This document shows positions 6,747 through 9,308 of a stretch of DNA of 30,023 bases, piece by piece. Positions within the stretch are counted from its first letter, which is position 1; each line of letters opens with the position of its first letter. The notes under the pieces are model-generated. The model did not search any database and was not told the origin of the DNA. It saw nothing but the letters and a program-made list of their open reading frames with translations. This DNA is from a virus. Its lineage: Duplodnaviria; Heunggongvirae; Uroviricota; Caudoviricetes. Both the position numbers and the translations under genes were made by a program. Location of the stretch: the IMG/VR virus record IMGVR_UViG_2778261270_000003. The stretch is one strand, 5' to 3'.

Positions 6747-6775
6747 AACCCGCTTCGGCGGGTTTTTGTTTTTAT
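6747..6775 (+). terminator. Rho-independent terminator after hokD
   Basis: AACCCGC-TTCG-GCGGGTT hairpin followed by TTTTTGTTTTT. Confidence 0.6.
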
Positions 6776-6894
6776 TTTCAACGCGTTTGAAGTTCTGGAC
6801 GGTGCCGGAATAGAATCAAAAATACTTAAGTAGCGCGCAGGGATAAGAGGGATGGTCCCTTAAAGGGGAGAGCTAATTATCCGGAAGGATTCTG

Positions 6895-7146
6895 ATGATG
6901 AACATCGAAGAACTGCGTAAAATTTTTTGTGAAGATGGCCTCTATGCTGTGTGCGTTGAAAATGGAAATCTTGTTAGTCATTACCGCATTATGTGTTTGC
7001 GAAAGAATGGGGCTGCGTTAATTAATTTTGTGGATGCTCGGGTCACGGACGGATTTATCTTGCGCGAAGGTGAGTTTGTCACTTCATTACAGGCATTGAA
7101 AGAGATCGGAATAAAAGCTGGCTTTTCTGCTTTTTCAGGAGAATAA
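6895..7146 (+). CDS. rem: Rem-like small prophage protein
   Basis: 83-aa ORF MMNIEELRKIFCEDGLYAVCVENGNLVSHYR...; matches my recollection of Qin Rem in size and sequence; GGAAGG RBS upstream. Confidence 0.75.
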   Translation: MMNIEELRKIFCEDGLYAVCVENGNLVSHYRIMCLRKNGAALINFVDARVTDGFILREGEFVTSLQALKEIGIKAGFSAFSGE

Positions 7147-7212
7147 ACTCATCTACAATCTTGCGCGGGGCTGAACTCCCGCTGAGTAACACCGTGCCAC
7201 CGGAGAAAACCG

Positions 7213-7491
7213 ATGGCACGCAACGCAAAATATTACAATTCTGATAATTCGCCCGTTCTTGCCTGCACGCACGGGCGGTATTCTCACGCATTCAAGTCTG
7301 AATGGTTCCAGCACCCTCCATGCACTGCAGAACAGGCCGAATGGCTGATTCATTCTTACCGCAGGCGCGGGTTCGAGGTTAAGAAAGCTCTCAGTCTCGA
7401 CTATCGGCACTGGATAATCTCTGTCAGGCTGCCTTATTCCGAACGCCCACCACGTGCGTCCCGCACTTTCCAGCAACGGATCTGGAGGTAA
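7213..7491 (+). CDS. Hypothetical protein, translationally coupled to the downstream DUF968 gene
   Basis: 92-aa ORF with ATG start and GGAGAA RBS; its stop codon sits inside the GGAGG Shine-Dalgarno of the next gene (stop 7489-7491, next start 7493). No family recognised. Confidence 0.35.
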   Translation: MARNAKYYNSDNSPVLACTHGRYSHAFKSEWFQHPPCTAEQAEWLIHSYRRRGFEVKKALSLDYRHWIISVRLPYSERPPRASRTFQQRIWR

Positions 7492-7492
7492 C

Positions 7493-8542
7493 GTGCGGGT
7501 ATTACTTAGACCTGTTCTGGTGCCTGAGCTTGGGCTGGTGGTCCTTAAGCCGGGCCGTGAATCCATACAGATATTTCATAATCCTCGAGTGCTGGTGGAA
7601 CCGGAACCAAAAAGCATGCGTAATCTGCCATCCGGAGTCGTTCCTGCCGTTCGCCAGCCGCTGGCGGAAGACAAAACATTGCTGCCGTTTTTTAGTAACG
7701 AACGGGTGATTCGTGCTGCTGGCGGCGTTGGCGCATTGTCCGACTGGCTATTACGTCATGTTACATCCTGCCAGTGGCCTAATGGCGATTACCATCACAC
7801 TGAAACAGTCATTCACCGTTATGGTACCGGCGCAATGGTGTTGTGCTGGCACTGCGACAACCAACTGCGTGACCAGACATCGGAATCACTGGAGCTGCTT
7901 GCTCAACAAAATCTGACAGCATGGGTGATTGACGTCATCCGTCACGCAATAAGCGGTACGCAGGAGCGGGAATTATCTTTGGCTGAATTATCCTGGTGGG
8001 CGGTCTGCAATCAGGTGGTGGATGCACTACCTGAGGCTGTATCGCGTCGTTCGCTGGGATTACCAGCGGAAAAAATCTGCTCGGTGTACCGCGAAAGCGA
8101 CATCGTACCGGGAGAGCAGACCGCCACCAGCATATTGAAACAACGCACAAAAAATCTTGCACCGTTGCCTTACGCCCACCAGCAACAAAAATCACCACAG
8201 GAAAAGACGGTGGTAAGCATCACCGTTGATCCAGAGTCTCCGGAATCTTTCATGAAGCTGCCTAAACGTCGCCGCTGGGTTAAGGAGAAATACACACGTT
8301 GGGTTAAGACACAGCCGTGTGCTTGCTGCGGTATGCCAGCCGACGATCCGCATCATCTGATTGGTCACGGGCAGGGCGGAATGGGAACAAAAGCACATGA
8401 TCTCTTTGTGTTGCCTTTGTGCAGAAAGCATCACAACGAGCTGCATACGGATACAGTGGCATTTGAAGATAAGTATGGCTCCCAACTGGAGCTGATATTT
8501 CGTTTTATCGATCGCGCGCTGGCAATTGGCGTACTGGCGTAA
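7493..8542 (+). CDS. ydfU: YdfU-like DUF968 protein with C-terminal HNH-type zinc-binding nuclease motif
   Basis: 349 aa from GTG 7493 (GGAGG RBS); the track ORF begins at an upstream in-frame GTG 7454. C-terminus CACCGMPADDPHHLIGH...LPLCRKHHNELH is an HNH-like signature. Position between rem and Q as in Qin. Confidence 0.8.
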   Translation: MRVLLRPVLVPELGLVVLKPGRESIQIFHNPRVLVEPEPKSMRNLPSGVVPAVRQPLAEDKTLLPFFSNERVIRAAGGVGALSDWLLRHVTSCQWPNGDYHHTETVIHRYGTGAMVLCWHCDNQLRDQTSESLELLAQQNLTAWVIDVIRHAISGTQERELSLAELSWWAVCNQVVDALPEAVSRRSLGLPAEKICSVYRESDIVPGEQTATSILKQRTKNLAPLPYAHQQQKSPQEKTVVSITVDPESPESFMKLPKRRRWVKEKYTRWVKTQPCACCGMPADDPHHLIGHGQGGMGTKAHDLFVLPLCRKHHNELHTDTVAFEDKYGSQLELIFRFIDRALAIGVLA

Positions 8543-8555
8543 GTGGAGAACGAGC

Positions 8556-9308
8556 ATGAACCTTGAAGCCTTACCAAAATATTACTCCCCAAAATCTCCA
8601 AAATTGAGCGATGACGCTCCAGCGACAGGCACCGGTTGTTTAACAATTACGGATGTAATGGCAGCGCAGGGGATGGTGCAGTCGAAAGCACCACTTGGGT
8701 TGGCCTTATTTCTGGCAAAAGTTGGTGTTCAGGACCCTCAGTTTGCGATTGAAGGCCTGCTAAATTACGCGATGGCACTGGATAACCCGACATTGAACAA
8801 ATTGAGTGAAGAAATCCGGTTACAGATTATTCCTTACCTCGTGAGTTTTGCCTTTGCTGATTACTCCAGGTCTGCGGCAAGTAAGGCTCGCTGTGAGCAT
8901 TGTTCAGGTACGGGATTTTATAATGTATTGCGCGAAGTGGTGAAACACTACAGACGCGGGGAATCTGTAATCAAGGAAGAATGGGTGAAGGAACTATGTC
9001 AGCATTGCCATGGTAAGGGCGAAGCCAGCACAGCGTGCAGAGGGTGTAAGGGTAAAGGGATTGTTCTGGATGAAAAAAGAACCCGGTTTCATGGCGTACC
9101 GGTATATAAGATTTGTGGGCGTTGTAATGGAAACCGGTTTAGTCGTTTACCGACCACGCTGGCACGACGTCATGTCCAGAAGCTGGTACCAGACCTGACC
9201 GATTATCAGTGGTATAAGGGGTATGCGGACGTCATTGGTAAACTGGTAACAAAGTGCTGGCAGGAAGAAGCATACGCGGAAGCGCAATTGAGGAAGGTGA
9301 CGAGATAA
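8556..9308 (+). CDS. quuQ: Late-gene antiterminator Q
   Basis: 250 aa from ATG 8556 (track ORF begins at upstream TTG 8526). Cys-rich zinc-binding cluster CEHCSGTG...CQHCHGKGEASTACRGCKGKG typical of Q-family antiterminators; immediately upstream of a candidate late promoter. Confidence 0.85.
   Translation: MNLEALPKYYSPKSPKLSDDAPATGTGCLTITDVMAAQGMVQSKAPLGLALFLAKVGVQDPQFAIEGLLNYAMALDNPTLNKLSEEIRLQIIPYLVSFAFADYSRSAASKARCEHCSGTGFYNVLREVVKHYRRGESVIKEEWVKELCQHCHGKGEASTACRGCKGKGIVLDEKRTRFHGVPVYKICGRCNGNRFSRLPTTLARRHVQKLVPDLTDYQWYKGYADVIGKLVTKCWQEEAYAEAQLRKVTR

Follow-up and report, generated by a model that had tools for sequence, protein, structure and literature searches.

In the lambdoid prophage DLP12 the genes ahead of the antiterminator gene are ordered ybcN-ninE-ybcO-rusA-Q. 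YbcO of DLP12 (Pfam YbcO/DUF1364, PDB 3g27) is a His-Me finger protein of about 96 aa with the nuclease domain alone, and its gene lies in the nin region before Q with a small ORF ahead. NinG/Rap of phage lambda, a His-Me finger structure-specific endonuclease, is encoded at the corresponding place of the nin region, ahead of Q. Recombination-linked HNH proteins of phages also include Ref of P1 (RecA-dependent HNH nuclease, 3plw) and the Orf-HNH proteins of Listeria/Staphylococcus (HNHc_6). In addition, P1 encodes PdcB, directly 5' of the late-gene activator Lpa.

A zinc-finger HNH motif was described in DUF968 by Curtis et al. 2014 (PMC4118853), and Jablonska et al. 2017 (PMC5714182) assigned DUF968, with YdfU named, and DUF1364/YbcO to His-Me finger group 7. 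For DUF968 a part in recombination comparable to that of NinG was proposed (PMC4118853 / PMC5714182). The HNH assignment was thus made for DUF968/YdfU in papers of 2014 and 2017 and is not new, and no experimental report on YdfU or any DUF968 protein was found in the literature.

The DNA studied here, a window of 30,023 nucleotides, is the cryptic lambdoid prophage Qin of Escherichia coli K-12. The 1.9 kb around the gene pair of interest was 100% identical to E. coli K-12 strains and was matched in 4920 of the 5426 complete E. coli genomes. Strain C600 is annotated here as relB-relE-hokD-rem-hypothetical (92 aa)-ydfU-ydfT(Q)-cspF-cspB.

YdfU shares the position before Q with YbcO and NinG, but it differs from YbcO in its 349 aa, which include an N-terminal Cys/His region and a helical middle. 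NinG belongs to Pfam PF05766, which was not matched by YdfU at E up to 1, and YdfU, unlike NinG, is often found together with RusA. PdcB is homologous to YdfU along its full length (26% identity, 91% of the protein covered), stands to Lpa as YdfU stands to Q and shares the N-terminal Cys/His motif, but it is without the HNH histidines. The small genes preceding these proteins, NinE ahead of DLP12 ybcO, NinF ahead of lambda NinG and pdcA 5' of PdcB, are all unrelated to the small ORF of Qin. Relatives of the latter (phrog_1212) precede the YbcO gene of phiES15 and mEp237 with the same type of junction, and NinG directly follows in 49 loci. 'Orf QD1' of N15 and ORF47 of PY54 are homologues too (tblastn), carried by linear-plasmid prophages, where a Lar-like zinc-ribbon gene and a DEDD exonuclease (N15 gp41) flank them; unlike the small ORF of Qin, they have no HNH gene after them and no N-terminal leader.

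The small ORF and its junction with ydfU

The features of the interval, all on the plus strand, are as follows.

6895..7146, plus strand: rem (83 aa), annotated in C600 and MG1655, phrog_340 match, listed for context only
7202..7205, plus strand: GGAG Shine-Dalgarno of the 92-aa ORF, 7 bases 5' of its ATG, from reading the sequence
7213..7491, plus strand: 92-aa ORF with ATG start, member of phrog_1212 (N15 'Orf QD1')
7213-7290, plus strand: leader of the small ORF, residues 1-26, unconstrained and disordered (dN/dS, AlphaFold2)
7291-7437, plus strand: core of the small ORF, residues 27-75, beta-alpha-beta-beta (AlphaFold2, dN/dS)
7438-7488, plus strand: tail of the small ORF, residues 76-92, conserved and basic, PRxSRTFQQRIWR (dN/dS)
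7484..7495, plus strand: junction GGAGG-TAA-C-GTG, from reading the sequence
7493..8542, plus strand: ydfU (349 aa), DUF968 protein (Pfam, phrog_96)
7769..7870, plus strand: Cys/His motif in the N-terminal part of YdfU, not covered by the Pfam DUF968 match
7970-8530, plus strand: Pfam DUF968 match in YdfU, residues 160-346
8318-8446, plus strand: HNH/His-Me motif of YdfU, C276..H318
8556..9308, plus strand: ydfT, the antiterminator Q gene (Pfam Antiterm, E 4.2e-54; annotation), listed for context only

The 92-aa ORF is a real protein-coding gene, conserved as ydfU is. Its product matched phrog_1212 with E 1.7e-35, residues 27-92 covering positions 1-66 of the model, which is the whole 66-aa model. 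Among 36 Qin-type alleles the dN/dS ratio was 0.09 for residues 27-75, 0.14 for residues 76-92 and 1.39 for residues 1-26, and the other two frames of the same DNA gave ratios of about 1.6. The protein-level conservation on which the original prediction depended was thus found. The core (residues 28-75) was modelled by AlphaFold2 with pLDDT above 90 and was followed by a short C-terminal helix, meanwhile residues 1-23 fell below 50 and the N-terminus was disordered. The only significant structural match of the small protein was to N15 'Orf QD1'/PY54 ORF47 (E 8.8e-4). Since residues 1-26 hold the sole in-frame start codon and the length variants of the ORF differ by whole codons, the leader is considered to be translated but unconstrained and specific to the Qin type. 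The tail, P-x-P-S-R-T-F-Q-Q-[KR]-I-W, was the best-conserved stretch across distant clades in spite of synonymous differences.

A profile search gave 505 relatives (clusters at 90% identity), and an exhaustive search of 1.84 billion representative proteins gave only 101 clusters at 50% identity, nearly all of about 66 aa. The named sources were mostly Enterobacterales and their phages. Lone matches were observed in an Alphaproteobacteria genome (Limoniibacter) and a Veillonella metagenome bin. The longer proteins from the exhaustive search, tried as a functional guide through domain fusion, turned out to be chimeras made by deletion. No match of the small ORF was obtained in Pfam, NCBIfam or PADLOC. 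Homology with NinE or NinF, which hold the same position in lambda, was rejected (hhalign probability 0.1% for NinE and 0.2% for NinF), and P1 PdcA gave no match as a relative.

The MG1655 reference has no gene annotated between rem and ydfU, as had been stated for this ORF, but PGAP calls it hypothetical protein WP_012304870.1 in C600, in other K-12 strains and in other genomes, so 'unannotated' holds solely for the curated reference.

The small ORF ends with TGG (7483), AGG and TAA (7489-7491), followed by a single C and then by the GTG of ydfU (7493). The GGAGG at 7484-7488 lies within the last two sense codons (W-R); the stop therefore separates the Shine-Dalgarno from the start of ydfU. 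The stop had been placed inside this Shine-Dalgarno; the tight junction was borne out, but the stop is 3' of it. Essentially every Qin-type locus had this junction unchanged, and an equivalent one, TGGGGG-TGA-nn-ATG, occurs in the NinG and YbcO classes, giving the pattern TGG-[AG]GG-stop-n(1-2)-start conserved across classes. A junction of this kind nearly always parted the small ORF from its downstream gene in the first 234 of the loci surveyed below.

A longer ydfU ORF of 362 aa could begin at GTG 7454, but this start was missing in 46 of 85 related loci, while the start one base past the stop was usable in 85 of 87 loci after start refinement. The annotated 349-aa YdfU is therefore taken as the conserved form. 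With stop and start a few bases apart and the Shine-Dalgarno inside the upstream ORF, the geometry is that of a coupled pair; it fits the translational coupling predicted from the sequence and is conserved in related loci. Tight stop/start junctions were the rule throughout these nin operons, so coupling does not mark out the two genes as a module of their own.

HNH signature of YdfU

The C-terminus of YdfU reads C276-A-C-C279 ... H287-H288 ... C310-R-K-H313-H314-N315-E-L-H318, with the residues present as the original prediction had described them. C276, C279, C310 and H313 are predicted zinc ligands of the treble-clef type (CxxC ... CxxH) and are kept in the enterobacterial homologues. H287-H288, for the catalytic His at the end of strand 1, and H314-N315-x-x-H318, for the metal-binding His/Asn of the helix, align with HH ... 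CHRELH of McrA (6ghc). Among the YdfU homologues compared, the HNH histidines were missing solely in P1 PdcB.

Profile searches supported this assignment at the sequence level. Pfam DUF968 (PF06147) was matched with 256.8 bits (cut-off 27.8) over residues 160-346, and phrog_96, 'HNH endonuclease', with E 2.8e-171 over the whole protein. HNHc_6 (PF16784) scored 26.3 bits (E 6.3e-6), just under its gathering score of 26.6, and RecA_dep_nuc (PF16786, Ref-type) scored 17.8 bits (E 0.0037), below its cut-off of 26.9. Some close homologues of YdfU carry a precomputed HNHc_6 match. The search of solved structures by sequence gave no significant match for YdfU, the best being the McrA HNH domain (6ghc, E 0.74), to which a profile from close homologues aligned the YdfU motif.

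AlphaFold2 modelled YdfU with a mean pLDDT of 51 and values of 32-62 across most of residues 270-310, because the alignment was shallow and held sequences of 77-90% identity only. Because the model is poor, the Foldseek search with it was uninformative (top match P1 Ref, 3plw, non-significant with E 1.1), and the fold of YdfU is inferred from its sequence. Of the HNH profiles, those of P1 Ref and the Orf-HNH proteins come closest to the YdfU C-terminus, with scores under curated cut-offs or non-significant. The weak RecA_dep_nuc score and the Ref match are consistent with a recombination-linked HNH protein. An Orf-like N-terminal domain was sought in YdfU and none was detected.

A second motif, C93-Q94 ... 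H/C101 ... C118-W-x-x-D122-N123-x-x-R126, was invariant in the N-terminal region among the Qin, Stx2, Klebsiella, Yersinia, Morganella and Vibrio phage homologues and P1 PdcB. This Cys/His motif is possibly a zinc finger. Its reading as a second, degenerate HNH domain was not supported: hhalign of the N-terminal against the C-terminal segment gave a probability of 0.9%. As judged from the sequence, the C-terminus of DUF968 bears a genuine HNH/His-Me signature.

Neighbours of the small ORF

A total of 318 loci encoding a relative of the small ORF were surveyed, 234 of them in three samples of closely sampled clades and 84 in a fourth sample of greater divergence. Directly 3' of the small ORF, the first 234 loci had DUF968 (87 loci), NinG (49), YbcO (38), an RNase_T-type DEDD exonuclease (35), another DEDD exonuclease (17) and a YbcO-like 95-aa protein (3). 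A nuclease gene directly followed in 230 of these 234 loci and in about 50 of the 84 loci of the fourth sample, far more often than would be expected of a random nin gene. The downstream nucleases fell into eight sequence families with at least three folds: DUF968, NinG, YbcO, the YbcO-like 95-aa protein and PF01844 HNH are His-Me finger families, and the others are RusA and the two DEDD exonuclease families. In two loci the small ORF was fused in frame to a nuclease, YbcO in one (L121) and an RNase_T exonuclease in the other (L239).

These observations give a hint of a dedicated partner, in which the small protein would be a general companion of phage early-operon nucleases and act as an adaptor or regulator through its C-terminal tail, bringing the nuclease encoded beside it to a common target, for instance ends or branches of DNA or a hub protein of the host, with coupling fixing the stoichiometry. 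Such a role would agree with a nuclease directly 3' in about 280 of the 318 loci, in eight families including non-homologous folds, with the two natural fusions to different nucleases, with a tail that is best conserved between distant clades and with a small, specialised family. We consider this reading possible, though doubtful.

The link was weakened by several results. The upstream neighbour of the small ORF was rem in 82 loci (its constant neighbour in Qin-type prophages), DUF1367 in 88 and a Lar-like zinc-ribbon gene in 52, and within each clade it varied less than the downstream one. Four allele groups of the small ORF (at least 95% identity) each paired with more than one nuclease family, for example NinG or YbcO, and the tail variants did not track the nuclease family. 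In the context DUF1367 - small ORF - nuclease, NinG (without RusA after it in 44 of 46) alternated with YbcO (with RusA after it in 33 of 35). In the fourth sample and four curated phages the next gene was RusA in half, often followed by a DUF968 gene; the remainder had NinX, a DNA methylase, a PAPS-reductase-like gene or a small gene of unknown kind there, and NinG lay 1-3 genes further on. These non-nuclease neighbours were seen in one clade. The view that the small ORF always precedes a nuclease had rested on the three closely sampled clades, and it was weakened by the curated phages and the fourth sample.

The converse failed as well. About 200 phage records had a YdfU homologue versus only 63 with the small ORF, and the latter was absent upstream in all seven YdfU homologues inspected outside the Qin type (SfV, Stx2 phage, Klebsiella phage, YeP2, Morganella phage, Vibrio phage H20 and P1 PdcB). 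The usual order in YdfU loci without the small ORF was RusA - KilA-like protein of about 265 aa - YdfU - Q, with stop and start overlapping or abutting. The Q gene is the conserved downstream neighbour of DUF968 genes, and the adjacency of YdfU and Q recurred in SfV, the Stx2 phage, the Klebsiella phage, YeP2 and the Morganella phage.

Two-way co-occurrence and co-variation of the partners, the marks of an obligate two-component system or a nuclease-immunity pair, were both lacking. HNH nucleases can be toxic and the two genes are abutted and co-transcribed, so a pair of the immunity or toxin-antitoxin type, with the small protein neutralising the nuclease, might be imagined; but YdfU homologues are widespread without the small ORF, one small-ORF allele pairs with unrelated nucleases, and neither protein matched toxin-antitoxin or defence profiles, with the NCBIfam search also empty. 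An inhibitor is the least credible of the readings. The 'two-gene nuclease module' itself was disfavoured by the generic tight junctions, by YdfU homologues without the small ORF and by alleles that swap nucleases.

A defence or anti-defence cassette, carried as an accessory gene pair of the prophage, had also been suggested. The region is rich in accessory genes (relBE, hokD and csp genes), and N15-like phages carry the small ORF among Lar-like restriction-alleviation domains. PADLOC, however, gave no defence-system match except PglZ at chance level (E 0.078), and the pair holds a conserved nin position right before Q in phages such as PhiR42_1, HannyBb and Tritos, which are complete and apparently functional, instead of a variable accessory slot; the literature and the neighbours indicate recombination. 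We found no evidence for a defence or immunity role of the pair, nothing indicates such a cassette, and we regard it as very unlikely.

Probable role of the gene pair in Qin-type prophages

The reading that we prefer, and consider probable, is ordinary packing of a nin operon beside the nuclease slot before Q. The small protein would then not be a subunit that YdfU requires, and a dedicated two-protein nuclease has the lower probability. The pair comes last before Q in the nin-like early-right operon of Qin. YdfU would be a zinc-stabilised His-Me finger (HNH) protein and a predicted nuclease, occupying the nuclease region which NinG/Rap, YbcO or RusA fill in other lambdoid phages. From its motif, its neighbours and the literature, it most likely cuts DNA in lytic growth, the candidate substrates being recombination or replication intermediates; the DNA-processing role suggested at the outset would fit position and neighbours. 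The loss of the catalytic histidines in P1 PdcB counts against this explanation.

The small-ORF family, with a core and a basic tail of about 66 aa together, occurs chiefly in Enterobacterales phages and prophages and in those of a few neighbouring genera, and the Qin-type member has apparently gained the unconstrained 26-residue leader which supplies its start codon. The usual place of the small ORF is between an Orf-like mediator (NinB, YbcN or DUF1367) and the nuclease slot. A depositor's HHpred note ties DUF1367 to NinB.

Ribosomes that end the small ORF could reinitiate at the GTG of ydfU, and the conserved 3' end of the small ORF with its Shine-Dalgarno may provide coupling of the reinitiation type to whichever gene follows. 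Nuclease modules may also be exchanged by recombination with this junction as the boundary. In uninduced K-12, Rho-dependent termination 5' of ydfU probably keeps the module silent. A very strong Rho-dependent terminator 5' of ydfU is reported in one study (PMC9160355), and values in its supplementary table are much higher for ydfU than for rem, which is read here as an expression change under impaired Rho.

The nuclease-neighbour enrichment and the two fusions leave room for a functional link, which may exist beside ordinary nin-operon packing; it is mainly because of this enrichment and the conserved tail that a direct partnership with nucleases deserves a place among the candidates. In its broadest form phrog_1212/'Orf QD1' would be a universal companion of temperate-phage nucleases, whose tail tethers or regulates unrelated nucleases (His-Me finger, RusA, DEDD) at a shared target. 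This would explain the coupled position 5' of eight nuclease families and the occasional fusions, and we hold it to be rather unlikely.

The finding is ordinary lambdoid prophage architecture and leaves current concepts of phage biology unchanged, with the small family and its conserved tail as the loose end. The strong but incomplete linkage to nucleases is a modest lead on how phages control or exchange nuclease modules, and the small ORF, missing in the MG1655 reference, merits a gene name. YdfU is an uncharacterised y-gene of K-12, with homologous DNA in most E. coli genomes; if it were shown to be an active HNH nuclease linked to recombination, this would close a gap in the nin region of lambdoid phages.

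Coding content and signals between rem and ydfU

The interval from rem to ydfU (window 7147-7492) was non-coding according to the MG1655 annotation, yet it holds the 92-aa small ORF. A Rho-dependent terminator, among the strongest in E. coli, lies upstream of ydfU according to PMC9160355, and in the supplementary table values of the same source ydfU stands at about 1.4-2.8, far above rem at about -0.5 to 0.5. These numbers probably represent altered expression in strains with impaired Rho. The features in and around this interval were as follows.

Features around rem and the small ORF
6747-6764, terminator-like hairpin, 3' of hokD
6787-6816, promoter-like site, 5' of rem
6895-7146, rem, with a match to phrog_340
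7132-7159, second promoter-like site, 5' of the small ORF
7454-7492, extension of ydfU from an alternative in-frame GTG at 7454, which gives a 362-aa product and a 38-base overlap with the small ORF

Five such sites were found in total, a number near the shuffle expectation (mean 3.4). As the GTG at 7454 was missing in 46 of the 85 related loci, it is probably not used as the start of ydfU. Apart from phrog_340, Rem gave only a match to SocB_toxin at E 0.0099, and its 14.9 bits fall far short of the cut-off, which is 210. The area under the small-ORF match was labelled 'toxin to Rem' in two phage records.

Several database proteins from E. coli assemblies (P0097, P0096 and P0049) were chimeras, in which the small ORF supplies its first 50-64 residues, fused to the YdfU C-terminus or a part of Q; these are evidently derivatives of deletions in the Qin region of some strains.

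The N-terminal motif of YdfU and its P1 homologue

Comparison of homologues revealed a second motif in YdfU, upstream of the C-terminal HNH motif.

7769-7870, N-terminal Cys/His motif of YdfU, residues 93-126

The pattern C93-Q94 ... H/C101 ... C118-W-x-x-D122-N123-x-x-R126 was invariant across a range that extends from Qin as far as Vibrio phage H20 and P1 PdcB, and it is excluded from the Pfam DUF968 match in YdfU. PdcB (phage P1, L185 2198-3989) is homologous to YdfU over its full length with 26% identity, and it has lost the HNH histidines while the N-terminal motif was retained, so the latter is the better conserved of the two. This motif may be a zinc finger; no significant similarity was found by hhalign between the N-terminal segment and the C-terminal HNH segment of YdfU. 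In P1 the PdcB gene adjoins that of the late-promoter activator Lpa, directly 5' of it, which parallels the conserved adjacency of YdfU and Q in lambdoid phages.

Genes adjoining the small ORF in related phages

In the GenBank record of N15, about 410 bases (L243 2309-2722) were left without annotation between gene 40, which is Q-like, and gene 41, whose product is an exonuclease of the RNase_T type that carries a Lar-like domain. The small-ORF homologue 'Orf QD1' lies in these bases, and so, judging from related loci, does probably an ORF for a Lar-like zinc ribbon.

The small ORF was joined in frame to the downstream YbcO in L121 and to a downstream RNase_T-type exonuclease in L239; these fusions could be genuine, or could be sequencing frameshifts at a junction of 1-2 bases.

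Among related loci with near-identical small-ORF alleles (L101-L180; for example L002 3004-3856), the nuclease position directly 3' of the small ORF was occupied alternately by NinG or YbcO. RusA was absent from 44 of the 46 loci with NinG and came next in 33 of the 35 with YbcO. This alternation after near-identical alleles therefore suggests that NinG alone and YbcO with RusA are interchangeable modules.
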